The translations under genes and the position numbers were made by a program. A stretch of DNA of 64,000 nt from the IMG/VR virus record IMGVR_UViG_3300032270_000543, positions 1 through 64,000 of that record. One strand, written 5' to 3'. Positions 3,989-15,498 of this stretch are shown in pieces. Origin of the DNA: a virus. Its lineage: Duplodnaviria > Caudoviricetes. Position 1 is the stretch's first letter. Every line of letters starts with the position of its first letter. Under the pieces are notes generated by a model, which searched no databases, was not told where the DNA came from, and was given only the letters and a program-made list of their open reading frames with translations.

Positions 3989-4561
3989 TTAGGCTCCCAT
4001 GTTTGCGTCAAAGTTATACAGCCCCGTGCTGCCGAATCCGCCTTCGCGCTGCGTCTTCTTTTGCGGGGGGTGATGAGTCTTCACAAGATCAACAGGCTGA
4101 TTGCGGACAAGTTCGGCTTGGCAGATTCGTGCGCCGTTGGGAATGCTCAAAAGGCACGAACTCTGCGTGGACACCATGACCTTGAGTTCATCGGTGTAGT
4201 CAGAATCAATCACGCCTTCAGCATTGGACAGCACAAAGCCGTCCTTCAGTGCCATGCCACTACGCGCATGGAGGCGCACCGAGTAGCCTTCAGGGATATC
4301 AAGGATGAGTCCCGTGGGCAGCAGGAACCGCCAACCTGGCGGGATGTCCAACACGCCCTGCGTGGGGTAGATTTCTGCCTTTACATTCTGTGGTCCGTAT
4401 GCGACCACAGGCTTCCACGCACCCCAATCCTCGTCAGAGTTTTCAGGATCGGGATGGAAACGCACACAGATGTCAAAACACGCAGAGCCGTCTGTGGCAA
4501 ATGCGGGAACCGTTGCATCGGTATCGGGAATGAGATAGAAACCAAGTGTAGGCTTGTCCAT
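3989..4561 (-). CDS. dut: trimeric dUTPase
   Basis: GSACFD, ARSG, GVIDSDY, RICQ and REGGFGSTG motifs I-V. Confidence 0.93.
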   Translation of the reverse strand: MDKPTLGFYLIPDTDATVPAFATDGSACFDICVRFHPDPENSDEDWGAWKPVVAYGPQNVKAEIYPTQGVLDIPPGWRFLLPTGLILDIPEGYSVRLHARSGMALKDGFVLSNAEGVIDSDYTDELKVMVSTQSSCLLSIPNGARICQAELVRNQPVDLVKTHHPPQKKTQREGGFGSTGLYNFDANMGA

Positions 4562-4582: not shown

Positions 4583-4610
4583 AGTATAGCACAAGAAGCA
4601 GGGGAGTCAA
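4583..4610 (-). promoter_or_regulatory. sigma70-like promoter (TTGACT-16-TATACT with TGn extension) upstream of dut
   Basis: -35 at 4610-4605, -10 at 4588-4583, followed by an AAGGAG RBS. Confidence 0.7.
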
Positions 4611-4822
4611 TCACCCTGCTTCAAGATTCGTGTATAGTTTTTATTTTGAAGTATCACGCCCGTTTCACGATCCCGACGAAATACACTACTCTGATTGGAC
4701 TGCTTCAGTATTACGCCAGTCTTTTTAGGATAGACATCAAACTGTGTCCGCGCAACACAAATCTTGTCGTGCTGCTTCTTTGGTCGTATTTCCCAATCCG
4801 TGTATTTGAGTTTAAGTTTCAA
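4607..4822 (-). CDS. small basic hypothetical protein (71 aa)
   Basis: 3' part of ORF 4607..4909. TTG 4822 overlaps the upstream TGA, and the protein has an internal TGVIL repeat. Confidence 0.5.
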   Translation of the reverse strand: MKLKLKYTDWEIRPKKQHDKICVARTQFDVYPKKTGVILKQSNQSSVFRRDRETGVILQNKNYTRILKQGD

Positions 4823-5241
4823 TGGCTTGCCTTCGGAGCCACAACAAACCGTCCGTTTAGGAGTTCGTCTGTGGTGACTCCCTTGGTGACATCCAACGAA
4901 TATTTCCATTGTCCTGCGTGGATGTATCCCATCGTGGTGGAATCAACAGTAACGCGAATACCGCCCGTGAAGACTCCACCCGTTTCCCCGCTATTCAGGT
5001 ATATTCTACCAGAACCAGAAACTCCACCTGTTCCTGTATATGAACCCGTGGATCCGCCACTAGTTACTCCTGAAGTAGTGACTTCAAGATACTTTGTGCT
5101 GCTTTCTGTGTAAGGACGGACATGGAAACGCGCAGAATACCCTGTTAGGTTGACAGCGTTGCCGTCATTGTCGTACCACTCCACATGGAAATCAAATGTG
5201 GAATATTCTTGCGCGTTGATGTCGTAGAAGGCTGATGCCAT
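4819..5241 (-). CDS. small beta-sandwich (BppU-N/Ig-like) putative virion protein with a G/S/T-rich loop
   Basis: STFDFHVEW.D.DG.AVNLTGYSARFHVR...G.WKYSLDV......LLNGRFVV pattern typical of small T4-like structural proteins. Confidence 0.6.
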   Translation of the reverse strand: MASAFYDINAQEYSTFDFHVEWYDNDGNAVNLTGYSARFHVRPYTESSTKYLEVTTSGVTSGGSTGSYTGTGGVSGSGRIYLNSGETGGVFTGGIRVTVDSTTMGYIHAGQWKYSLDVTKGVTTDELLNGRFVVAPKASH

Positions 5242-5378
5242 TAGAGTGCCTTTGCTTTGTTGGCAGCGTCACGGGCGCGGTTCTCGCTTTTCCGTAGTGC
5301 TGCTGCCTTGCGATTGCGGCGAGTAATACTGCTTGCAAAACCGCCTCTTCCCTTGCCGCTTGGTGAGTTTCTTGCCAT
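5241..5378 (-). CDS. 45-aa basic peptide (below the ORF-track cutoff)
   Basis: MARNSPSGKGRGGFASSITRRNRKAAALRKSENRARDAANKAKAL; TAATG overlaps at both ends, GGAGG RBS, CTAAATA upstream. Confidence 0.7.
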   Translation of the reverse strand: MARNSPSGKGRGGFASSITRRNRKAAALRKSENRARDAANKAKAL

Positions 5379-6586
5379 TACTTCCTCCGCTTCTTGAAAG
5401 TCTTCACCTTATTTAGAACAGGAGCATCGGCAGGATTCACCACGGGAACGGATGGAAACTGTGGTTGACGCGCTTGCAGTTCCTTCAACTTTTCGATATA
5501 GGCAGCATGGTTTTTCCGAGTACGATCTATTTCGCTTTCTGGAAGTCTATTCTGCTTCAGAAGGACTTCACAAGCCTGAAAACCTGCCATGTGGTCATGC
5601 ACATAGAAAGCCGTGGCAGCCAGTTCATCTAGTGCCATCCACTTGTATATGTTCGTGTCGATGAACAGGATATCGTGCTGAGGATACGGTAGGTGTGCTG
5701 CTTCTTTTGCAAACAGATATGCAGCGCGTGGGCGACCGTTCATGCGTAGGAACCGAGCAATAGCGTGAAGTGGTTCGGCACGGCACGGGCGATAGTCGTA
5801 TGAGTCTAGGAACTTTTGCTGAACAACCGTCCAATTGCTTTCCTTCTGAATCTCACACAGCGCAATACGGAACAGCGAGTAGTAGCACTCCTCTTCCCAT
5901 CCGCCCATCTCCACCCGCTTGTAGTACGCTTCAATGGCTTTGTCCCACTGCTGCGAGTCAAAGTACGACTGCGCCAGATAGAACTGATAGCGAGAGTTCG
6001 TTGGATCAGTCTTCAAGGCTTCAATCAGAGTTTCTGCGTCCTTGGAGTACTTCTCCACCTGTGTAATGTTCACATTGCGGTGACCAAGGGTACGAGCCTC
6101 AAGCGCGTAGTCGCCTTCAATACGGAACTGCATGAGAGGCTGCTTTTCACAGTGAGCATACTCATGCAGAACACCAATGTACTTCCAGCCAATACCTGTC
6201 TTGAAGATTTGATTGCGCCACCACACACAGCCGTCACGACCGCACTTGAGTGCATACGCATCGTTCGTAAGATTCTTTCCATTGGGGTACTTGAAGTTGC
6301 CAACGATCTTGTCGTCTGCATCAATCATCCATGCGTAGTCTGCCTTGCCGTCACATAGGGCAAGGGCTTCGCTGCGGTTATGACCAAAGTTTACCCACGG
6401 ACGCTCAATGAGTTCGCCTGGAATTCCCTTCTCCGCAAAGTAGTTGCGGATCAGGTCTTGGGTTCCATCCGTGGAACCCGTGTCCACGATGACCCAATAG
6501 TCGATGTGCTGCCAAATAGAATCAAAGCACTCGCGGATAATGTGCGTTTCGTTTTTGACGATCATAGAGAGGCATACTGTAGACAT
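5378..6586 (-). CDS. GT2 glycosyltransferase with C-terminal TPRs
   Basis: CLSMIVKNE...IVDTGSTDGT...NFGHNRS...IDADD...GVLHE, followed by TPR-like helices (FYLAQSYFD...AIEAY). Confidence 0.9.
   Translation of the reverse strand: MSTVCLSMIVKNETHIIRECFDSIWQHIDYWVIVDTGSTDGTQDLIRNYFAEKGIPGELIERPWVNFGHNRSEALALCDGKADYAWMIDADDKIVGNFKYPNGKNLTNDAYALKCGRDGCVWWRNQIFKTGIGWKYIGVLHEYAHCEKQPLMQFRIEGDYALEARTLGHRNVNITQVEKYSKDAETLIEALKTDPTNSRYQFYLAQSYFDSQQWDKAIEAYYKRVEMGGWEEECYYSLFRIALCEIQKESNWTVVQQKFLDSYDYRPCRAEPLHAIARFLRMNGRPRAAYLFAKEAAHLPYPQHDILFIDTNIYKWMALDELAATAFYVHDHMAGFQACEVLLKQNRLPESEIDRTRKNHAAYIEKLKELQARQPQFPSVPVVNPADAPVLNKVKTFKKRRK
5410..5416 (-). promoter_or_regulatory. late-promoter motif CTAAATA
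   Basis: About 30 nt upstream of ATG 5378; same motif as before structural genes. Confidence 0.55.
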
Positions 6587-6605
6587 TCACGATCTCCTTG
6601 TACGG

Positions 6606-7538
6606 TTATTTATGCGCGGCAATCCAATCTTCAAGACGAACTTTGGAAGTCCATCCAAGATGCTTATTTGCTTTCAAGGCGTTGGCTAGTGTCACACGCG
6701 ACTCGCCAATACGAGCAGGAATATTTGCAGTTTCTCCACCCATCATTCGCGCAATCTCATTTATTGAATGATTCTTACCTGTACCAATGTTGTAGACCTG
6801 ACCCCACTCCCAAGCACGATATACAATTTCGTTCTCCACCAAATATTCAGGAGCCACGAACTGCGAAGCATTGATATTTGCTTGCACCACATCACTCACA
6901 TGAGTAAAGTCACGCCGCTGTTCACCGTCACCCACGATGGTCATGGGTTCTCCTGCTGCTCGCTGACGCAGGAAGATTCCAATCACGGGAGCATATTGAC
7001 CACGCAGGGGCTGACGCTCTCCGTACACATTGAAGTAGCGGAAGATGACAGTCTCCAATCCGTACAGTTTGGAGTACATTTTGCACAACTCTTCGCCTCC
7101 CGTCTTGGAAACCGAATACGGGTTCAGGCAATCGTTGGGCATGGTTTCCACAAGAGGTGGATTGTTCTTCAATCCGTAAGCAGCAGAAGTTGATGAATAG
7201 ATTACTCGCTTGACACCACAGACACGGGCGCACTGCAACACACTGGCTGTGCCAAGCATATTGGCTTCCACAGCCTTTAGCGGGTCTTCAATGCACGGCT
7301 GAATGCGGGCTTCCGCAGCAAGGTGAAACACCGTGTCCACACCCTCATACAGTTTACGAACCATTGTGTAGTCATTGATGTCGTACTTGTAGTTCTTGGC
7401 AGCAGGGTTCCAATAGAACTGATCATGTGCATCTGATGATTCATTGTCGATCACCGTGACTTCGTGACCGTCCGCAATCAGCCGATCAACGAGATTTGAT
7501 CCAATGAAACCCGCTCCACCTGTTACTAGTGCTTTCAT
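6606..7538 (-). CDS. NAD-dependent nucleotide-sugar epimerase (GalE-like extended SDR)
   Basis: TGGAGFIGS, HLAA, YSVSK (YxxxK), RYFNVYG and GDGEQRRDF motifs. Confidence 0.92.
   Translation of the reverse strand: MKALVTGGAGFIGSNLVDRLIADGHEVTVIDNESSDAHDQFYWNPAAKNYKYDINDYTMVRKLYEGVDTVFHLAAEARIQPCIEDPLKAVEANMLGTASVLQCARVCGVKRVIYSSTSAAYGLKNNPPLVETMPNDCLNPYSVSKTGGEELCKMYSKLYGLETVIFRYFNVYGERQPLRGQYAPVIGIFLRQRAAGEPMTIVGDGEQRRDFTHVSDVVQANINASQFVAPEYLVENEIVYRAWEWGQVYNIGTGKNHSINEIARMMGGETANIPARIGESRVTLANALKANKHLGWTSKVRLEDWIAAHK
6607..6613 (-). promoter_or_regulatory. late-promoter motif ATAAATA
   Basis: About 20 nt upstream of the GT2-TPR start, followed by AAGGAG. Confidence 0.55.
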
Positions 7539-8626
7539 CGCTCAATTTCCTTTTCGCTGCGTGTTAGGGCAGACCCCACCACTTGGTGCATATCGTAATA
7601 TTTGTAGTCTGCCAAACGACCACCGAATATGTATCTGTCGGTGTCGATCCTGTTCTTGTACTGCGTGTATAGTTCGTTATTTCTATCATCAGTCACTGGA
7701 TAGAACTTTTCTTTTGTGCTGTCCCAATTCTGCGGATACTCTCGGGTGATGACGGTGTGATCCTGTTTGCCGAATATGAAGTGCTTGTGTTCCACCACAC
7801 GAGTGTACGGAATCTTGGCATCGGTGTAGTTTATTGCTGCTACTCCCTGATAGTCAGGAATCTGAAGCGTCTGATGTTCAAATCGCAGGCTTCTCCACTC
7901 AAGACTGCCCAGATCGCAACCGAAGAATTCGTCTATGGCTCCCGTGTATACAACCTTTCGTGCCATGCCTTCAAGACGCTCACGATCTTTGAGAAAATCA
8001 ACACCCGTTTCAACGGGAATACCATTCAACAGTTTTTGAAAGATGGGTGTGTATCCGTCAACAGGTATGCCCTGATACTTGTCATCAAAGTAGTTGTCAT
8101 CGTAGGTGAGTCGAATGGGAAGCCGCTTGATGATGGACGCGGGGAGATCCTTGGGATCACGGTTCCACTGCTTTGTGGTGTAGCCCTTCACGAACTTCTC
8201 GTAAATCTCTTCACCAACTTGGGACAGCACCCACTCCTCTAGGTTGGATGGAGATGGAATGGCAACCCGCACTTGAGCCAGTTTGTCCCGTGCCTCTTGT
8301 GGAGTCTTCACGCCCCACAACTGATATAGAGTGAACAGATTGATAGGGAACGAGTACAGGTTGTCTCCGTGGATGACGCGAGGACGGTACACAAAATGGT
8401 TGAACCGTGTCCATCTGTTCATGTATTCCCATACACGGTCACTGCTTGTGTGGAATATGTGTGGACCGTATTCGTGGACATGAATGCCACCTTCGTCACG
8501 GGTATAGCAGTTTCCACCGATGTGGGTACGCTTGTCCACGACAAGACACCGCGCACCCGCATCAGTCATCTGTCGCGCAAATATTGCTCCAAATAGACCA
8601 GAACCAACAATCAGATAATCATACAT
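7535..8626 (-). CDS. glf: UDP-galactopyranose mutase
   Basis: IVGSGLFG, HIGGNCY, HEYGPHIFHT, GYTTKQW, YQGIP, RVVEHKHF and GRLADYKYYDMHQ motifs. Confidence 0.95.
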   Translation of the reverse strand: MYDYLIVGSGLFGAIFARQMTDAGARCLVVDKRTHIGGNCYTRDEGGIHVHEYGPHIFHTSSDRVWEYMNRWTRFNHFVYRPRVIHGDNLYSFPINLFTLYQLWGVKTPQEARDKLAQVRVAIPSPSNLEEWVLSQVGEEIYEKFVKGYTTKQWNRDPKDLPASIIKRLPIRLTYDDNYFDDKYQGIPVDGYTPIFQKLLNGIPVETGVDFLKDRERLEGMARKVVYTGAIDEFFGCDLGSLEWRSLRFEHQTLQIPDYQGVAAINYTDAKIPYTRVVEHKHFIFGKQDHTVITREYPQNWDSTKEKFYPVTDDRNNELYTQYKNRIDTDRYIFGGRLADYKYYDMHQVVGSALTRSEKEIER

Positions 8627-9278
8627 TGCAAACTATCCCACGATCTTCCACGGTGGTGCGGGAGCAGAGGCGCGGCTCCACCGTTTTGTGCGTCAAGAAG
8701 TAGTACCACAATTGCTCAAACATGATACCCAAACGCAAATCATTTAGTTCGGTCTGATCCATAATCCAATCGTAGCACTTCTGATAGAACGACAGAGGAT
8801 TCCTCAAGATGGACTCTCGGGGAGCCACGAACTGCGCGGACATCGTGTGTTCAAGTTTAGACGGGAACGGCAAATCAATGCAGTGCCACGCTAGTTTCAT
8901 GTGATCCCAAACAATCTGATCGGGACATCCTTCGAATAGCAGGTTGCGGTAGTACGGATTGTTCAGGGTATAGAACTCCTGCCCACGATAATCCTCAAGT
9001 GCTTCAAGAACTGTTCTGTCCTGATGCCAAGCAGTGTCATGTCCGTGACAGAAAGCAACATGGTCAGGAAGCGAATCGTACCGATCAATGATGAACTTCA
9101 GATACGAAGAGGTTTCCTTTCCTTTGTTGGGCAGCAACACAACTCGCTCGGGAGATATCCCGTACTTGGAAACCTCTGCTTCATTCTTGGAGTAGACCAC
9201 GAAATCGTATTCGGTCTGTTTCACCAACCATGTCAGATTTTCAGAATAGTGCGAGGCTAGGATCAGGGGCTTGTTCAT
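8619..9278 (-). CDS. DUF3431-like protein (putative glycosyltransferase)
   Basis: HYSENLTWL...PNKGKE...YL.FIIDRYDSLPD.VAFCHGH..AWH...AQFVA.RE.I...FEQLW; start chosen at an ATGA overlap. Confidence 0.7.
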   Translation of the reverse strand: MNKPLILASHYSENLTWLVKQTEYDFVVYSKNEAEVSKYGISPERVVLLPNKGKETSSYLKFIIDRYDSLPDHVAFCHGHDTAWHQDRTVLEALEDYRGQEFYTLNNPYYRNLLFEGCPDQIVWDHMKLAWHCIDLPFPSKLEHTMSAQFVAPRESILRNPLSFYQKCYDWIMDQTELNDLRLGIMFEQLWYYFLTHKTVEPRLCSRTTVEDRGIVCNV

Positions 9279-9715
9279 TGTTTGCTCCAATCTTCAGGAT
9301 GATCCGTACATACTCCAAGTGCATCTGCTGGTAGGCGACAATCCGCAGGACAGTCCTTCACCACGGTGATGCCTCCCGCGATGTGGTTGTCGGGATAGCA
9401 CCAAGGGAATCCTCTGCTAGTCAAAGTATAGCGGTCGGTTTCGTGCCAGAAGCAATGAATTGCCATAGACAGCATTTGCTCAAGAGCAGCAGCATTCTTT
9501 GCATGGCACCACAATACGCTTTTCAATTCATTAAGCCAAGTTCCATAGACTCGGTACTGCGGGGAATCGTGTCCAAGGTAATACTCGCCATCCACATACC
9601 ACACATCCACCTCAACATCATAGCCAGCATCTATCGCTGCCTGAATGTATGACGGATGATTCTCCTGTTCGGGAATCCTTCCGTTCAAGTTTCCTCGGTG
9701 TGATATGATCTTCAT
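9275..9715 (-). CDS. short glycerophosphodiester-phosphodiesterase-like protein
   Basis: IISHRGN...EN...GYDVEVDVW...LGHD...WCHAKN...GVCTD. Confidence 0.75.
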   Translation of the reverse strand: MKIISHRGNLNGRIPEQENHPSYIQAAIDAGYDVEVDVWYVDGEYYLGHDSPQYRVYGTWLNELKSVLWCHAKNAAALEQMLSMAIHCFWHETDRYTLTSRGFPWCYPDNHIAGGITVVKDCPADCRLPADALGVCTDHPEDWSKQ

Positions 9716-9718
9716 GGC

Positions 9719-10438
9719 TTATCGAACCGTCTTTGCCAAGAATGCGTTCAGGTCTTCAGGAGTGCCGATTCCGTGCATCTCCTGAACATAGAAAGGAACC
9801 ACCGTCTTGCCTGTGGCTATCATTTCGTTGTATACAGGAGCGATGTAGAACTCGTTGTTCACGCGAATGTTCTTGGCAATCATGCTTTCCGCAGCCTCAA
9901 CGAAATCCTTGCCGCGCCGATACCAGTATATTCCGCAAGTTGCTACATTTGAAATGGGAATCTTCTCTGCCACTTCAGACACGAAACCCGCACCATCAAT
10001 CTTTGCGAATGACCACTTGGGGTGAACCGCGTTGAATGTGAACACGATTCCATCCACCGATGTCAGTCTCTTCATCGTTATGAAATTCTCGGGACGGTAT
10101 TCGATTATCTGATCGGAATTTGCAATCAGCAGATCATCATCGTTGTTGATGTGTTCTTTTGCCAATAGAGCAGTGCAAGCAGCACCTTCTGTCAGACCAT
10201 CGACTTCAACAATCTTGAAGCGTCCACCCGTGATGCGGAGCAGAGTGGTCAGAAGCCCCTCATACTTTTCCAGATGCTCCTTGCGGACAAGAAAGATGAA
10301 CTCTGCGGGGAAACTCAGGTTTTCCACGACCTTTTGGATCATGGGCTTGCCGTCAACATCAATAAGCGGCTTTGGGAAGGTGTAGCCTTCCTTTGCAAAC
10401 CTGCTGCCTTCGCCAGCCATAGGAATCAGGATCTTCAT
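9719..10438 (-). CDS. sugar/polyol-phosphate nucleotidyltransferase
   Basis: ILIPMAGEGSRF...PKPLI...TEGAACT...ANSDQ...VAEK...EFYIAPVYN...GTPEDL. Confidence 0.88.
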   Translation of the reverse strand: MKILIPMAGEGSRFAKEGYTFPKPLIDVDGKPMIQKVVENLSFPAEFIFLVRKEHLEKYEGLLTTLLRITGGRFKIVEVDGLTEGAACTALLAKEHINNDDDLLIANSDQIIEYRPENFITMKRLTSVDGIVFTFNAVHPKWSFAKIDGAGFVSEVAEKIPISNVATCGIYWYRRGKDFVEAAESMIAKNIRVNNEFYIAPVYNEMIATGKTVVPFYVQEMHGIGTPEDLNAFLAKTVR

Positions 10439-11040
10439 TTCACAATCTCCTTGTAGTTTTCAAGAGTGACTTCTGATGGGTTTGCAACAACCCACAGATT
10501 AGGAACACACGATGCCCGCGCAGCCTCAATTCCTTTTGGAGAATCCTCAACGCAAATACACGAAGACGGATCGACACCAAGAGTCTTCACCGCAAAGTTG
10601 TAGCAATCGGGATATGGCTTATTTCGTGGAACATCTCCGTTGCTCACAACCAAATCCATAAATTTAATCTGTCCTGTCTGTCGCAACATGGCAGTCGCGG
10701 TAGTGTGAATAGAGTTTGTCACACAGGCAATCTTTATGCCTTGGCTCTTCAGATACGAATGCAATTCCTGCTTTTCGGGCATGATTTGCGCTTGCTCTGC
10801 TATGATCTCAAGAGTCTTCATCTGCTTTAGGACTTCAATCCGTGAAGCAGTCTGTGCTTCAAGCCCAAGCATTCGCAACTTCACGGCGGTAGGCAATCCA
10901 TTATACTTGCTAATGTGATCTTCTCGGGATATTTCAAACCCAACTATTTGACGCATGGCTTCATTCAATGCAGTATAGTGCCATTCGCAGGCATCAACCA
11001 AAACACCATCAAGATCAAATAGGACGCATTGAATGTTCAC
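10435..11040 (-). CDS. HAD-superfamily phosphatase
   Basis: FDLDGVLVD, VTNS, KPYPD and VEDSPKG motifs. Confidence 0.92.
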   Translation of the reverse strand: MNIQCVLFDLDGVLVDACEWHYTALNEAMRQIVGFEISREDHISKYNGLPTAVKLRMLGLEAQTASRIEVLKQMKTLEIIAEQAQIMPEKQELHSYLKSQGIKIACVTNSIHTTATAMLRQTGQIKFMDLVVSNGDVPRNKPYPDCYNFAVKTLGVDPSSCICVEDSPKGIEAARASCVPNLWVVANPSEVTLENYKEIVK

Positions 11041-11840
11041 GCTGTGCCTCTTTCCAATATGAGTTGAATGTCTGATGCGTAGGCATTGTACGGACGAACC
11101 GAATGAAAGTCAATATGTGTTCCCGCACTAAAAGCAGGAAGTTGTAATCCAATCCGTGATCTGCACAGCCTGTTCTGCGGAAGGATTCGTTGACCTGTAT
11201 TCACGATTCCACCTCTACGATAATACTCTCGCATAAGAGAAGACGAGTACATTTCGTCTATTCCCCACATACCGCCATTAGCAGCACTTGCCTTCTGCAA
11301 ATGAGTTTCGGGTGTAGAAGCAAATCCACTCCTGTACTCGCTGTAGTCTCTGTTGAGCAATTTCTGCATCTCATCGGCAAACGAATCAGAAAAGTCGTAG
11401 ACAGAATTGAGAATTTCCGTTGTCGCCAAATGGTAGCACACGGGAACTGTGATTCCATCTGACTTCCAGCAATCAAAGTTCCCTACATGGTAAGCGTCTG
11501 CGTTTAGATGAGTATAGACATCTGTGTTTGGCTCTGCGCTAATGAAGAACTGACGCGACAGCGGAAACATATCAATGTCACTGATCAGGCATAACTTATT
11601 GGGAAAGAACTTGGTGACCCAGAACCGCCCCCAAGTGGCAGCAACATAATCAGGAACCCCGTCCAACACATCGTGATACACCACTGTTCCGTGTTCTTCG
11701 GACAGGTCGGGATTGTCTTTTCCATAATAGAACAGCACGGGATGAATCCCGAACTGCTGCTTCCATTGCTTGGAAATTGGATTCCAGAACTCCCAGTAGA
11801 TGGGGTCATCATTACAAGAAAGGGTCACGATATCAATCAC
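11037..11840 (-). CDS. putative glycosyltransferase (DxD-containing orphan)
   Basis: LISDIDMFPL, PVCY, WGIDE and IDFHSVRP; located in the glycan cluster. Confidence 0.5.
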   Translation of the reverse strand: MIDIVTLSCNDDPIYWEFWNPISKQWKQQFGIHPVLFYYGKDNPDLSEEHGTVVYHDVLDGVPDYVAATWGRFWVTKFFPNKLCLISDIDMFPLSRQFFISAEPNTDVYTHLNADAYHVGNFDCWKSDGITVPVCYHLATTEILNSVYDFSDSFADEMQKLLNRDYSEYRSGFASTPETHLQKASAANGGMWGIDEMYSSSLMREYYRRGGIVNTGQRILPQNRLCRSRIGLQLPAFSAGTHIDFHSVRPYNAYASDIQLILERGTA

Positions 11841-11843
11841 GGG

Positions 11844-12485
11844 TTACCTCAAAGTGAATACTCTATCTTCTATGTAGCCGCGATCAAACTGCCTTCGCAA
11901 CAGAACCGTGTATTCAAAACGGTTCACCATCTCGCCTTGATTGTTGTGGCGATTTAGTATTTCAGAATGGCAGGGAATTCCACTCTCGCAATATGAACCT
12001 ATTCTCTGAAACATAGAGCAGTACTTGGACATGATTTTAGGTGAGGAAAAAGCCATCATGTCAAATAGCCCACCGCGCCAATCTCCACCAACAGGAACAT
12101 TCAGCATATTCATGTCAAAGTCCTTGAGGACGAGGGGATTAGTATACTTCAAATCGTATCGCGTCTTTATTACACAATCGTATTCACCTTCAATCAGACC
12201 AAACGCGATCTCAATATTTCTCCACTGACACATCAATCCGAATACATTCACTTCGGGTGCCTTGTTTGCTTCACAGGCAGCGGGAACAGGAAAAGTGACA
12301 GAAGACTTTTCTTCTAATACAAATCTCTTGGGAGAATAGGTTTTCAATACTTGTTCGGTGTTCTCGTCATTATACAAATGGAGGAACAGATCACAATCAT
12401 TTTGCGAAAGGATACAGGCATTCAGAGAAGGATAGCAGTCTCTGAAGGTTCGCGCATCACCCGCGATAATTATTGCGGTCTTCAT
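11844..12485 (-). CDS. putative glycan-modifying transferase (orphan)
   Basis: KTAIIIAGDARTF...YDCVIKTRYDL...DMMAF...HSE pattern of polysaccharide-locus hypotheticals. Confidence 0.5.
   Translation of the reverse strand: MKTAIIIAGDARTFRDCYPSLNACILSQNDCDLFLHLYNDENTEQVLKTYSPKRFVLEEKSSVTFPVPAACEANKAPEVNVFGLMCQWRNIEIAFGLIEGEYDCVIKTRYDLKYTNPLVLKDFDMNMLNVPVGGDWRGGLFDMMAFSSPKIMSKYCSMFQRIGSYCESGIPCHSEILNRHNNQGEMVNRFEYTVLLRRQFDRGYIEDRVFTLR
11871..11877 (-). promoter_or_regulatory. late-promoter variant CTACATA
   Basis: About 30 nt upstream of start 11840; the same variant precedes gp3. Confidence 0.4.
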
Positions 12486-12988
12486 CCAAGTATTGCTTGC
12501 AGATCGTACTTGTTGCTGACAACCGTGGTCTTTACGGGGAACACATCGTAATCGTAGACCGAACTAAAGTGTCCTTCCAAGTGCTTCCACCCGTATGAAG
12601 GCTCTTCGGAATCGTGATACAGTATCACATCAACCTTGTCCTTTAGCCGCAGGATATCCACGATGCGCCGCTCACCAGGCGCGTGATCCACGAAAGCAAT
12701 ACTCCACTGCTTGTTCCAGTCAACAACATCGTACACCGCATCCCAATTTCCGTTGGGAATGAAGTGCAAATTATGGTTGGGCTTCTTCCACAGGTTCTTT
12801 CCGTGAACTCCAGAACTCATCATCTTGTACCACGATTCGTTGGACTCAAAAGAACAGAGTTCACCTTCCACAAGAGTACACATCACAGGACTTGATCCCA
12901 TCCCTGTGCCGAATTCAATTACATTTCCACCAAACTTGGTAATACACTTTGCGAGAATTGGAATATGGGTAAGGCACGGATCAATCAT
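12482..12988 (-). CDS. class I SAM-dependent methyltransferase-like protein
   Basis: VIEFGTGMGSS motif I, SFESNESW, AFVD and LYHD. Confidence 0.65.
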   Translation of the reverse strand: MIDPCLTHIPILAKCITKFGGNVIEFGTGMGSSPVMCTLVEGELCSFESNESWYKMMSSGVHGKNLWKKPNHNLHFIPNGNWDAVYDVVDWNKQWSIAFVDHAPGERRIVDILRLKDKVDVILYHDSEEPSYGWKHLEGHFSSVYDYDVFPVKTTVVSNKYDLQAILG

Positions 12989-13683
12989 GGTGTTTCTGCT
13001 TTCTGCAATATGGCAATATCGGATTCACTATTATGGTTCTCGTTTTCATCAAAGCACTGTCCAACAAAGGTCACTCCTCCATTGGTGGCTCCCCGTGTAG
13101 CACCCGCAGGGAAAGGATTCTTCTGAAAGAAGGGATCGTGAACGCAAACGGTCAGTTCACCGTCCTTTACCTTGTCCCAAACCCATTCCCACAGGAAAGA
13201 CTGATCCTGTCCCTTGTCGCTGCTCGGCTGAAACTCTTCCATGTCGCGGGCAATACCCTTGAGTTTGCCGCCCTTCACGCCCCACATACCACCAAGCATG
13301 GGCACACCGTGATACGGATGGTCGCGCATCACATGGAGATCGGCTCCACTTGCAAGCCAAGCGTCCACCGCCAGCCGCTCACGATCAGACAGACGGGAAT
13401 CTGTATCGCGGCTCATCATGTACTCTACGCCCTCTTCGTCAGCGGGAAGGAAACGGTGGAACATACCACGACTGTCTGCGGTATTGTATTCACCTTCAAC
13501 ACGGCGCACAAGCACATTCGGACGAGATTCCAACTCTCTGATTATGTCTTCGGGGACGGAATCAAAGCAATAAAAAATGCAAGTCCAATCAGGAAACAGT
13601 TTAGCCGCCAGATCCGCATTGCGGATGGCACCCACCGTGTATGTGGGCTTGTCTCCCCACAGACTATATGAGATTGCTTTCAC
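12985..13683 (-). CDS. putative glycosyltransferase (SYSLWG/RDxDSR family)
   Basis: ISYSLWG...GAIRNA...MFHRFL...SRDTDSRLSDRE..AV..W...HVMRDHPYH...GGMWG; GTG start in a GTGA overlap. Confidence 0.55.
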   Translation of the reverse strand: MKAISYSLWGDKPTYTVGAIRNADLAAKLFPDWTCIFYCFDSVPEDIIRELESRPNVLVRRVEGEYNTADSRGMFHRFLPADEEGVEYMMSRDTDSRLSDRERLAVDAWLASGADLHVMRDHPYHGVPMLGGMWGVKGGKLKGIARDMEEFQPSSDKGQDQSFLWEWVWDKVKDGELTVCVHDPFFQKNPFPAGATRGATNGGVTFVGQCFDENENHNSESDIAILQKAETP

Positions 13684-14318
13684 TGCTGATCCTGCGCGAC
13701 AAAGGATGCCGTAGTCTTTGAATTCCAAATATACCCATGCAACGAATCATCAATGTGGTATTCAGTCTGAACCTTTGGGTACAGTCGCATAAGCCAGTCG
13801 ATGTCCTCGCTTGATTGACCCGCAGCACTATAACTCTGCACGAACTCTTCGCTCTGTGCAATCTCGCGCCGCCATACGCACATATGGTAAGGGGGACGCT
13901 TAATGTCTCCAAGGAAACCGTCCTCATCGCGCCACATATGACCATGAGGATTCCCGATTCCAAAATGAACATCCATCGGCTCTCCGTCAATACTGCACCA
14001 CTGATTGAATGTGATACAGTCCACATTGTTCTCGTCAATTGCCTTCAGGATCTTGCTCATGTAGTCTTTGCTGACTGCATCATCATCGTCAAGGAAAGCA
14101 ATGTACTTGCCACGCGCTGACCGTAGAAGATCGTTTCTCTTGTCTGCAATCGTCTTTGAACGATTGTCCAACAGCACAAGAATCTCAACAGCCTTGCCCT
14201 GCCCAAGAGCATCAGCCTGCTCCTGAAGATGCTTTACGGCAGCGGTCATGGACTGAATGCGTTCGGGAATGGACAGCATCAGAATGCTGAACTTGATTTC
14301 ACTTGCTGATACTGGCAT
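13680..14318 (-). CDS. GT2-family glycosyltransferase
   Basis: FSILMLS...KRNDLL..ARGKYIAFLDDDD...EDIDW. Confidence 0.85.
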   Translation of the reverse strand: MPVSASEIKFSILMLSIPERIQSMTAAVKHLQEQADALGQGKAVEILVLLDNRSKTIADKRNDLLRSARGKYIAFLDDDDAVSKDYMSKILKAIDENNVDCITFNQWCSIDGEPMDVHFGIGNPHGHMWRDEDGFLGDIKRPPYHMCVWRREIAQSEEFVQSYSAAGQSSEDIDWLMRLYPKVQTEYHIDDSLHGYIWNSKTTASFVAQDQQ

Positions 14319-15003
14319 TGAACATTACCTCCATGTCAAACTTGTTTGCGGCTCTACGCTTAAATGTTTCACCGTCCACCCCGTACATCTCCGCGTTCTC
14401 GTTACGGGCGTGGAGGGTATCCCACGGCTCACTTGTCCACTGGTGCTGAATAATGCAAAGATCGCAACGGCGCAACTTGTTCAGAGCAGCGCACACCTGT
14501 GTCTGCTCGTTATCGCAGTACAGAGACTTGTATTCAGGATTGTAGATGTAGCCAAACTGCTTGTACAGTGGGAAGCCCATGACCGTGAGGGTCATCAGCG
14601 GGTCTTCCTTGGGACGCAGCCCGTCCCAGAACTTGATGGCTCCATCGTAGTCGGGAAACGCTTGCTCATAGCACTTGGCAATAATGTCATCGTAACCCAT
14701 CTGCACGGGCACCATGTCATCAGACGCAAGCAGCAGCACATCGCCGTCCACGCCCTCTAGGTTGGCGTTGCAGGCTTGGATCTTGCTCTTGGAGTGCCCG
14801 TAGAAGCACTCAATCTGCGCGTTCTGTGCGCGAGTAGACAGCCACTGCTGCATCTCGGGGTTGTTCATGGTGGCATCGTCTTCGTCCATCGTAATGATGA
14901 AACGCACATCGTGCTGCCCACTCAAGAAAGTGAGGTAGCGACTGAAGACGCTCTTAAACTTTTCGGGACGATTGCGAGTCGGGAACTTGATCACCAGTTT
15001 CAT
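14299..15003 (-). CDS. GT2-like glycosyltransferase
   Basis: IKFPTRNRP...DEDD...KIQACN...LLASDDM...YNPEYKSLYCDNE...IQHQW. Confidence 0.75.
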   Translation of the reverse strand: MKLVIKFPTRNRPEKFKSVFSRYLTFLSGQHDVRFIITMDEDDATMNNPEMQQWLSTRAQNAQIECFYGHSKSKIQACNANLEGVDGDVLLLASDDMVPVQMGYDDIIAKCYEQAFPDYDGAIKFWDGLRPKEDPLMTLTVMGFPLYKQFGYIYNPEYKSLYCDNEQTQVCAALNKLRRCDLCIIQHQWTSEPWDTLHARNENAEMYGVDGETFKRRAANKFDMEVMFNASISK

Positions 15004-15019
15004 AATATATCTCCTGTTT

Positions 15020-15457
15020 TCACTCTTCGGGCTTCATGGTCTTCTTTGACCGCCCTATATGGTATTTAGGGCAGAGTTCCCACTCGCCCTTCTCCTTGAA
15101 TGGGAGAATCTTTATTTTGTTGAGGGGAACCTTGTCCGTGATCTTGGCTTTGTCCACGATCTTTACCAAGCCCCACTCTTCAAGCAGACACGCAACGGTG
15201 TTGCGCCGTCCCGTGTCTTCGCTGTTGATGGAGGTGGGCAGATCATCCAACGCAAACATCTCCTTGAAGTGGACAATGTAGTACTTGCCCTTCTTGTGGA
15301 GGATATGGCAGGATTGCCACAACTTCTTTTCGGTTCGGGAAGACACGCCAATACGGGTCAGCGTTTCACGGACTTTCAAAAAGTCATCAGGCTTCTGTAG
15401 AGTGACCTCAAGCAGATCACTGGTTTCAATATCAATATAGCGTTCGTCTTGTTCCAT
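15020..15457 (-). CDS. regA: translational repressor RegA
   Basis: DDFLKVRETLTRIG...QSCHILHKKGKYYIVHFKEMFALD...WELCPKYHIG. Confidence 0.96.
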   Translation of the reverse strand: MEQDERYIDIETSDLLEVTLQKPDDFLKVRETLTRIGVSSRTEKKLWQSCHILHKKGKYYIVHFKEMFALDDLPTSINSEDTGRRNTVACLLEEWGLVKIVDKAKITDKVPLNKIKILPFKEKGEWELCPKYHIGRSKKTMKPEE

Positions 15458-15491
15458 GCGTTCACTCCGAAAAATTGAACTGACACGGAAC

Positions 15492-15498
15492 TATTTAG
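15492..15498 (-). promoter_or_regulatory. late-promoter motif CTAAATA upstream of regA and the glycan block
   Basis: Intergenic, about 35 nt before the regA ATG; a second copy lies at 15063-15069 inside the regA 3' end. Confidence 0.6.

Follow-up and report, generated by a model that had tools for sequence, protein, structure and literature searches.

A block of thirteen genes in the genome of a T4-like phage is best read as a late-expressed, cytoplasmic system for protein O-glycosylation that decorates the virion, a reading to which we give about an even chance of being correct. The block lies within a window of 64,000 nucleotides (nt), i.e. the first 64 kb of the 149,886-bp IMG/VR viral contig IMGVR_UViG_3300032270_000543, whose completeness is estimated by CheckV at 83%. 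Family searches of the contig detected genes for the clamp, the clamp loader, RegA and structural proteins, as in T4-like phages, and its gp44 homologue shares at most 57% identity with gp44 of cyanomyoviruses. The space from regA to dut is filled by 13 open reading frames (ORFs), designated A to M, which run on the minus strand, like every gene of interest here, from 14299-15003 down to 5378-6586. Adjacent genes overlap by 4-49 nt or are separated by gaps of no more than 19 nt. The initial annotation of the window had described thirteen contiguous, mostly overlapping genes at this place; these were confirmed, and three small ORFs of 45, 140 and ~71 amino acids (aa) were found in addition between M and dut.

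The anchor of the block is gene M (5378..6586, minus strand), which encodes a GT2-TPR protein of 402 aa that is predicted to be an initiating protein O-glycosyltransferase of the SgtA/GmaR/SunS type. Its N-terminal GT-A (GT2) domain matches PF00535 (E 1e-10), and the C-terminal tetratricopeptide repeats (TPRs) score above the cut-offs of TPR_17 and TPR_14 and appear as helical repeats at residues 176-373 of the structural model; profile and fold searches with M also retrieved TPR structures. The nucleotide-binding motif DTGSTD and the motif D89-A-D91-D92 (DADD) are invariant in 58 homologues. A PDB search with a profile of 16 sequences retrieved GmaR (E 6e-15), SunS (E 2e-9) and ThuS (E 2e-8). 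The AlphaFold (AF2) model, which has a predicted local distance difference test (pLDDT) score of 91.4, was aligned by Foldseek with full-length SunS (7msn, E 1e-15) and ThuS (E 1.3e-14) over ~397 columns at a template modelling (TM) score of 0.58, identity in these fold alignments being ~14-17%; the next folds were TarS (7e-7) and TarP (~1e-6) with TM scores of ~0.3 (0.33). By profile and by fold, the nearest characterised relatives of M are protein or peptide glycosyltransferases and not polysaccharide, teichoic-acid or DNA enzymes, which bears out the label of a protein-type glycosyltransferase that M had been given initially. GmaR adds GlcNAc to flagellin and its TPR domain has been proposed to recognise the protein substrate (PMC9638930); more generally, enzymes combining TPRs with a glycosyltransferase domain recognise whole protein substrates (PMC9638930, PMC7591256).

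When M was compared by tblastn with 50,697 phage records, the only matches were to Tunturi_5, to four records of huge phages and to three short contigs, none of them from a cyanophage. Tunturiibacter phage Tunturi_5 (PP885688.1, 30077-45126) is a cultured phage of 309 kb with an acidobacterial host. Its M homologue, gp35 (37.5% identity), is located between a dUTPase/replication block and, in divergent orientation, four paralogous ORFs of ~285 aa together with a tail-fibre gene. Tunturi_5 could be an experimental model.

Relatives of M were found on at least 123 viral contigs of IMG/VR, and 80 of these loci were retrieved for comparison. Wherever the flanks were captured, M is positioned downstream of regA and upstream of dut. 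Two architectures were observed. The minimal one consists of regA, a spacer of 33-48 nt, M, a further 100-220 nt and dut. In the expanded one, 7 to more than 10 kb are inserted between the regA late box and M, and a gene for the 140-aa protein comes after M. The existence of the minimal form indicates that M works without the other island genes. In the M tree the minimal loci group together in one clade, and the gene for the 140-aa protein, which has an immunoglobulin (Ig)-like fold, is missing from this clade as well. Co-occurrence of M, island and Ig-like gene was therefore rejected as independent evidence. The C-terminus of M (window 5378-5470) comprises a disordered linker followed by a conserved basic tail, K-x-F-K-K-R-R-K, which is kept by most island-bearing relatives and not by the minimal-locus clade.

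The interior of the island is exchanged extensively. The complete set from A to M is common to only two relatives; the two ends, with A, B and C on one side and the epimerase gene on the other, are often retained, and the middle is replaced even where the flanks are 91-95% identical. In the window, G+C content amounts to 44-46% across genes D to G (10500-13000) as compared with 50-54% in the flanks, which fits recent cassette exchange within the island. Altogether the islands of the 80 relatives contain 844 ORFs falling into 298 clusters, and the dominant families are epimerases/dehydratases, aminotransferases, C- and O-methyltransferases, UDP-sugar dehydrogenases and transferases of the GT2, GT25, GT47, WavE and RXYLT1-like types. 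None of the 844 ORFs encodes a multi-spanning membrane protein, and none has more than two weak hydrophobic segments. Likewise, a hydropathy scan detected no membrane-spanning segment in any protein of the block itself, the highest value over 19 residues being 1.11. An initiating phosphoglycosyl transferase, a flippase or ABC transporter and a polymerase or ligase, as present in Wzx/Wzy- or ABC-dependent loci, are absent from the block. The initial impression that flippase, polymerase and lipid-carrier initiating transferase are missing was thus upheld for the block and agrees with the islands of the 80 relatives. Judged by its gene content, the island is an O-antigen-like, hypervariable and entirely soluble glycan island. 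Since its interior is exchanged in the manner of an O-antigen locus, the glycan would be strain-specific. Searched at the nucleotide level, phage records yielded no match to the block. A close relative, G003 (147,410 bp, major capsid protein 81% identical), is complete with direct terminal repeats and can serve as a reference for sequence that the 83%-complete contig may lack.

Evidence for the kind of acceptor comes from genes adjoining M homologues. In Clostridioides difficile, SgtA, a protein of 358 aa with a GT-A domain and four TPRs, is encoded directly upstream of bclA3 (PMC7157674). In vitro it transfers the initiating beta-O-GlcNAc onto Thr residues of the BclA3 collagen repeats; the extending enzymes are not known (PMC7157674). 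Bacterial genomes were scanned with a profile of M, and in 22 of the best 80 loci a Gly-x-Thr collagen-like gene is present within ~2 kb of the M homologue (for example L165:6001-8184, L146:6001-8244 and L121:4788-7092). These 22 loci derive from Streptomyces, Bacillus, Clostridia, Chloroflexia, mycobacteria and several metagenome-assembled genomes, and in the main cluster of neighbours the representative has a BclA C-terminal domain. Among the viral loci, 23 of 80 have a collagen-like gene after M on the same strand, in most cases with Thr in the Y position (GPT, GAT, GNT, GST). Of five related phage genomes, four encode perfect (Gly-x-Thr)5 repeats, among them a genome of the minimal-locus type. 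The spread of the bacterial loci over very different phyla suggests that GT2-TPR enzyme and Gly-x-Thr collagen form a widespread enzyme-substrate pair beyond spore-formers.

In the window the place after M is taken by the small ORFs. A highly basic ORF of 45 aa (5241..5378, minus strand; net charge +11), kept in 11 relatives with a median identity of 74%, is chained by TAATG stop/start overlaps both to M and to the ORF of 140 aa (4819..5241, minus strand). The latter encodes an Ig-like protein of the BppU-N / T5 p132 type, a candidate virion protein and candidate acceptor whose gene comes after M in 59 of the 80 relatives. Its AF2 model (pLDDT 86) shows an Ig-like sandwich with a disordered Gly/Ser/Thr loop at approximately residues 63-77 (pLDDT below 50). 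With TM scores of 0.6-0.73, Foldseek aligned it with the T5 tail tip (7qg9)/DT57C tail-tip collar (baseplate), with 'minor tail proteins', with the staphylococcal 80alpha baseplate and with a BppU-N protein from phiM12, a T4-like phage; no match to the 140-aa protein was retrieved from phage records by tblastn. On the basis of this model, the Gly/Ser/Thr loop is our best guess for an acceptor in this phage. The last ORF before dut (4607..4822, minus strand) is basic, encodes ~71 aa, its start being uncertain, and is weakly conserved in 19 relatives. A glycocin-type peptide substrate was considered and rejected, as Cys residues are few or absent in the small ORFs, which also lack a leader peptide.

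Other virion proteins were inspected for features of an acceptor. The gp23 and gp19 homologues have conserved T4-type C-termini without extension. Comparison of the major capsid protein between island-bearing and island-less relatives revealed no discriminating extension or loop; variable Gly/Ser/Thr loops are present in all of them. The motif G-x-T-[GA] occurs 35 times in virion proteins, as compared with 17 occurrences expected after correction for composition (z 4.2), and enzymes show no excess. This excess was not counted as evidence for a sequon, since its biggest share comes from a probable fibre with structural repeats of NGxTGAVT. This protein of 1293 aa (genome 135590-139471, minus strand) contains many repeats of the NG(L/V)TGAVT type. 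The sole collagen-like stretch of the genome (142445-142939, minus strand) comprises 55 triplets, which are charged (GER/GEK type) and not Gly-x-Thr, with thyX (143422-144057) close by.

Promoter-like elements point to late expression. Structural genes of this phage carry the heptamer CTAAATA ~20-65 nt ahead of their start codons, and genome-wide 25 of 51 TAAATA boxes lie no more than 80 nt upstream of a start on the same strand, where ~2 would be expected by chance. The block contains four boxes of the CTAAATA type, all in sense orientation, located before regA, A, M and the small ORFs. The first one (15492..15498, minus strand) lies ~40 nt upstream of regA, the gene of the translational repressor that forms the upstream boundary (15020..15457, minus strand; PF01818 E 4e-42), and in 23 of 23 relatives TAAATA is found ~42 nt upstream of regA. 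The second (15063..15069, minus strand) lies within regA near its 3' end, 65 nt ahead of gene A; it is present in 9 of the 11 relatives that have gene A, and in minimal loci the box in the 3' end of regA directly precedes the GT2-TPR gene. The third, CATAAATA (6607..6614, minus strand), is positioned 26 nt upstream of the start of M, and 53 of the 80 relatives have TAAATA within 100 nt upstream of their GT2-TPR gene, clustering at 26-29 or 52-55 nt. The fourth (CTAAATA, 5410..5416, minus strand) is located within M near its 3' end and ahead of the small ORFs. Late expression of the block is hence supported by its promoter boxes.

The downstream boundary is formed by dut, a gene of the dUTPase family (3989-4561, minus strand; family search). 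Upstream of dut a TAAATA box was detected in only 1 of 36 relatives, and a sigma-70-type promoter is present in most relatives whose upstream sequence was inspected. In the window this promoter, TTGACT-N16-TATACT, is surrounded by a hairpin, AAGCAGGG...CCCTGCTT (4583..4622, minus strand), that closes the glycan operon, and it occupies the loop and the 3' arm of that hairpin. The terminator of the late operon and the early dut promoter would accordingly share the same 40 nt (window 4583-4622).

As for the donors and further transferases, genes K and L are the best defined. Gene K (7535..8626, minus strand) encodes a UDP-galactopyranose mutase, Glf (TIGR00031 361 bits, cut-off 304; PF03275 E 5e-75). 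Gene L (6606..7538, minus strand) encodes an extended short-chain dehydrogenase/reductase of the NDP-sugar 4-epimerase/dehydratase type that is GalE-like (PF01370 E 5e-57); its score against TIGR01179 (153 bits) is below the cut-off of 262, so that GalE itself is a tentative assignment. Gene G (10435..11040, minus strand) codes for a HAD hydrolase/mutase of the beta-phosphoglucomutase family (PF13419 E 2e-30; TIGR02009 E 3e-30, 105.7 bits, below the cut-off of 153.35) with weak MupP-like and beta-PGM-like matches. The product of gene H (9719..10438, minus strand) is a sugar-phosphate nucleotidyltransferase (NTP_transferase, PF00483 E 1e-8) with RmlA-, GlmU-, AglF- and MurU-like matches that are each below cut-off. 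Gene I (9275..9715, minus strand) encodes a protein of 146 aa that may be mini-GDPD-like, with a match to the PDB entry 7e0v (E 3e-4) confined to the N-terminal motif; the motif HRG...E.EN...E.D is invariant across 14 homologues. H and I (window 9275-11040 including G) co-occur in 18-20 relatives, often together with the HAD gene G. The family searches upheld the earlier assignments of Glf, HAD protein and nucleotidyltransferase; the GalE-like label of L holds at the level of an extended SDR, and the GDPD-like label of I is weak.

The remaining genes are harder to assign. Gene B (13680..14318, minus strand; 212 aa) encodes a GT2 glycosyltransferase (PF00535 E 2.5e-10; PHROG 8858 E 5e-32). Gene A (14299..15003, minus strand; 234 aa), which adjoins regA in 13 relatives, possibly encodes a glycosyltransferase, as suggested by a weak match to PHROG 14945 'glycosyltransferase' (E 5e-8); profile searches retrieved no Pfam or PDB match. 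Gene C (12985..13728, minus strand; 247 aa) carries an invariant RDTDSR motif and has no Pfam or PDB match. In the ESM Atlas its product falls into unnamed, virus-only clusters, and the nearest named family is GT8/Nucleotid_trans, a weak match (0.91). Gene D (12482..12988, minus strand; 168 aa) may encode a class I S-adenosylmethionine-dependent methyltransferase, given an EFGTGMGS motif and weak PDB profile matches (2yvl E 0.0046; 8k1f E 0.099); methyltransferases are frequent among the islands of relatives. Gene E (11844..12485, minus strand; 213 aa) has a match to DUF7796 below cut-off (E 2.6e-5), belongs to PHROG 13607 and has no PDB match. Gene J (8619..9290, minus strand) encodes a DUF3431 protein (PF11913 E 4e-30) for which neither a PDB match nor functional literature on the family was found. 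Gene F (11037..11840, minus strand; 267 aa) represents a large uncharacterised family. At least 194 homologues, all labelled 'hypothetical', were found in metagenomes including Tara samples, on contigs of up to 298 kb. None of 54 scanned members had a Pfam match, and no PDB relative was detected even with an alignment of these 54 sequences. Because D88-x-D90, H246 and R249 are invariant in the family comparison, F is a candidate for a new family of nucleotide-sugar enzymes.

For C, E, F and J no support as transferases was obtained from Pfam or PDB, and the ESM Atlas provided weak leads only. When profiles of A, C, E, F and J were set against that of the GT-A domain in M, and the profile of C against that of F, no signal emerged, the alignments being too shallow; this result speaks neither for nor against the five proteins as transferases. 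Of the seven transferases counted initially, B as a GT2 enzyme and M as a GT2-TPR enzyme stood, A is weak, and C, E, F and J found no backing from Pfam or PDB; the methyltransferase D likewise persists as a weak assignment (2yvl). 'Up to seven transferases and a methyltransferase' is, as far as the families can tell, an upper bound.

From these data the following pathway can be proposed. The TPR domain of M would bind a late protein of the phage, as suggested by family and context, and M would place the first sugar on Ser/Thr residues of Gly/Ser/Thr-rich segments, as SgtA does on BclA3 and GmaR on flagellin. L and K, whose enzyme identities are established, would provide UDP-galactofuranose, and G, H and I would make a second activated donor. 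Host UDP-glucose or a similar precursor would still be needed, so that the notion of a self-sufficient pathway was not borne out. The glycan would then be lengthened by the GT2 enzyme B, probably also by A and perhaps by C, E, F and J, and D may methylate it. Finally, the modified proteins would be built into the virion, the prime candidate here being the 140-aa Ig-like protein and in many relatives the Gly-x-Thr collagen-like fibre that is encoded at the place of the 140-aa gene.

Several points weigh against this proposal. That the acceptor is a virion protein is a conjecture, and only their position suggests that the twelve genes upstream of M share its acceptor. Four of the proposed transferases (C, E, F and J) are putative. 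Neither this genome nor the complete relative G003 contains a Gly-x-Thr collagen repeat, which means that the best-supported class of acceptors is absent here. The G-x-T-[GA] excess is concentrated in fibre-type structural repeats and may be architectural rather than a sequon. The M tree shows a single joint gain or loss of M and the 140-aa gene, so that their co-occurrence counts as one event. Moreover, no terminator is present between the block and gp45-gp44-gp62 upstream of it, which makes early or middle read-through from gp45-gp62 into the block possible. The designation of the block as 'late' gained from the late-type boxes and their conservation in relatives; exclusively late expression was not borne out.

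The block could alternatively serve to remodel the host envelope, its soluble enzymes acting on lipid-linked intermediates of host lipopolysaccharide (LPS), capsule or exopolysaccharide with the aid of the host's initiating transferase and exporter; a surface changed in this way might exclude superinfecting phages or influence recognition. In Pfam content the islands do resemble O-antigen/LPS loci (GT25, WavE, DegT, epimerases, FkbM methyltransferases), and the solubility of the island is compatible with this alternative, as cytoplasmic O-antigen transferases are themselves usually soluble. Clusters of cyanomyoviruses, with up to 13 transferases plus epimerases, have indeed been read in this sense (PMC12801897). 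However, the anchor enzyme M is of the protein/peptide type with TPRs and lacks a cyanophage homologue in tblastn, late-type promoters would be odd for exclusion or a change of surface, a membrane component is found in 0 of 80 islands, and the block abuts a virion-type Ig-like gene or, in relatives, fibre genes. We consider envelope remodelling unlikely on these grounds. Still less probable in our estimate is a division of the locus into two systems, with M adding a single sugar supplied by the host and the twelve upstream genes being an unrelated cassette at a recombination hotspot beside regA, which might for example reshape sugar-nucleotide pools or make a soluble glycoconjugate. An entire clade possesses regA-M-dut alone, and both the lower G+C content of the island (44-46% against 50-54%) and the turnover of its content between relatives with 91-95% identical flanks would be expected of such a cassette. 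However, insertions are always situated between the regA late box and M, in the same orientation and with tight overlaps; the inserts in all 80 loci consist almost exclusively of glycan genes; and the clade lacking the island lacks the Ig-like gene, too.

Two further alternatives concern the acceptor. M might act on a protein of the host, for instance flagellin, pilin or some enzyme, in order to take over the cell or to disable a receptor. Its closest solved relative by sequence is after all the flagellin O-GlcNAc transferase GmaR; GmaR and FlmG both modify flagellin, and enzymes joining TPRs to a glycosyltransferase recognise whole proteins (PMC9638930, PMC7591256). The late promoter argues against a role in takeover, however, and M adjoins genes of phage structural type; we regard a host-protein acceptor as quite improbable. 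Glycosylation of DNA, in which the transferases would decorate modified phage bases as a protection from restriction like the alpha- and beta-glucosyltransferases of T4 and the GT-A/GT-B enzymes described by Pyle et al., is the reading that we find hardest to credit, although the block adjoins the replication genes gp45, gp44, gp62 and dut, pairs of glycosyltransferase and epimerase genes beside clamp genes are typical of DNA-modifying clusters (bioRxiv 10.1101/2023.12.21.572611), and variable glycans would suit an arms race with restriction. It requires hydroxymethyl pyrimidines and hence either a hydroxymethylase of the ThyA family or a C5-methyltransferase together with a TET-like oxygenase (bioRxiv 10.1101/2023.12.21.572611). 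None of the corresponding families, PF00303, PF00145 and PF12851, was found in the 149.9-kb contig (estimated 83% complete) or in five relatives, one of them complete with terminal repeats, the absence being less certain for PF12851 (TET/JBP), whose control search was positive in no genome. The initial observation that a synthase for hydroxymethylated cytosine or uracil is missing from the window can thus be extended to the whole contig and to five relatives. The presence of ThyX points to ordinary thymidylate synthesis, and by fold comparison M is not of the JGT/TarP type. As judged from the genome, a DNA acceptor is therefore unlikely.

Returning to virion glycosylation as the preferred reading, a broader generalisation can be offered tentatively, and we regard it as doubtful: virions of the T4-like clade carrying M (at least 123 contigs) would bear strain-specific, O-antigen-like oligosaccharides on Ser/Thr of Gly/Ser/Thr loops and Gly-x-Thr fibres, built in the cytoplasm, initiated by M and extended by the exchangeable cassette. 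If this holds, T4-like phages of aquatic bacteria build complex particle glycans that vary as fast as bacterial O-antigens, and phage particles would have 'serotypes' of their own. In the phage studied here, galactofuranose would be one component of the glycan and a methylated sugar perhaps another. The families of C, E, F and J, which are virus-only and were called without a Pfam model, would constitute new glycosyltransferase families, and some of the long-puzzling 'LPS genes' in T4-like cyanophages might serve to glycosylate virions. Such glycans would bear on adsorption, stability, stickiness to mucus and particles, grazing and immune recognition, as well as on the annotation of 'auxiliary' sugar genes in viromes. 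To our knowledge, glycosylated virions of tailed phages have been shown experimentally only for some mycobacteriophages. Testable reagents are at hand in the soluble enzyme of 402 aa and the adjacent candidate substrate of 140 aa, in the Gly-x-Thr fibres of relatives, such as the ORFs at L011 12315-13286 and L058 8273-9856, and in the cultured phage Tunturi_5.

Phage-encoded protein glycosylation of the SgtA type is a known kind of system; what would be new is the unusually large, variable and soluble glycan island joined to it. SgtA, which we liken to M by description and not by direct sequence comparison, is also soluble and of similar size, with an N-terminal GT-A domain and C-terminal TPRs, and a collagen gene adjoins the enzyme gene in loci of M homologues as well (22 of 80 bacterial and 23 of 80 viral loci). 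The systems differ in that Gly-x-Thr collagen is absent here and the neighbour of M is an Ig-like protein with a Gly/Ser/Thr loop, in that the setting is a phage late operon and not a spore coat, and in that M is attached to a 12-gene island for donor synthesis and extension. GmaR of Listeria, acting on flagellin, and the glycocin S-glycosyltransferases SunS and ThuS share with M a GT-A domain with DxD motif followed by a TPR-like helical domain, and they have protein or peptide acceptors (PMC9638930). However, M lacks the antirepressor domain of GmaR, and the ORFs beside it are not glycocin-like as are the substrates of SunS and ThuS.

Glycosylation of virions by the phages' own transferases has been described for mycobacteriophages (Freeman et al. 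2023), where, as far as it is summarised in later papers, structural proteins are modified (PMC12619734, PMC12801897) and, according to one such secondary description, the glycans are carried at the C-termini of capsid and tail-tube subunits (PMC12619734). Here, in contrast, the gp23 and gp19 homologues end in ordinary T4-type C-termini, so that this feature is not shared; moreover, those phages are siphoviruses of actinobacterial hosts and not T4-like. They reportedly possess only few transferase genes each, and we know of no mycobacteriophage with a donor-synthesis island as large and variable as the present one.

Among T4-like phages, the cyanophages P-SSM2, S-SCSM1 and S-SCSM2R encode many transferases and NDP-sugar epimerases, which have been read as modifying the host surface or cell wall or the phage DNA (PMC12801897). 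The expectation that a complex glycan on a T4-like particle would be novel has to be tempered accordingly, since clusters with multiple transferases were already known from these phages (PMC12801897). A T4-like genome carrying several transferases together with NDP-sugar epimerases is common to both, the block described here having two GT2 genes, an epimerase gene and Glf; however, M is without cyanophage homologue (tblastn of M alone), and the clade described here is distinguished by a fixed position between regA and dut, late boxes and an anchor enzyme of the protein type. The pathway as a whole has a parallel in chloroviruses and mimiviruses, which, as the cited accounts describe, synthesise unusual sugars by virus-encoded, cytoplasmic and membrane-independent enzymes and transfer them to capsid or fibril proteins (PMC9614988, PMC5408694). 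These are viruses of eukaryotes, and the likeness is drawn at the level of pathway type; in giant viruses, on these accounts, complex glycans built by the virus itself are already familiar.

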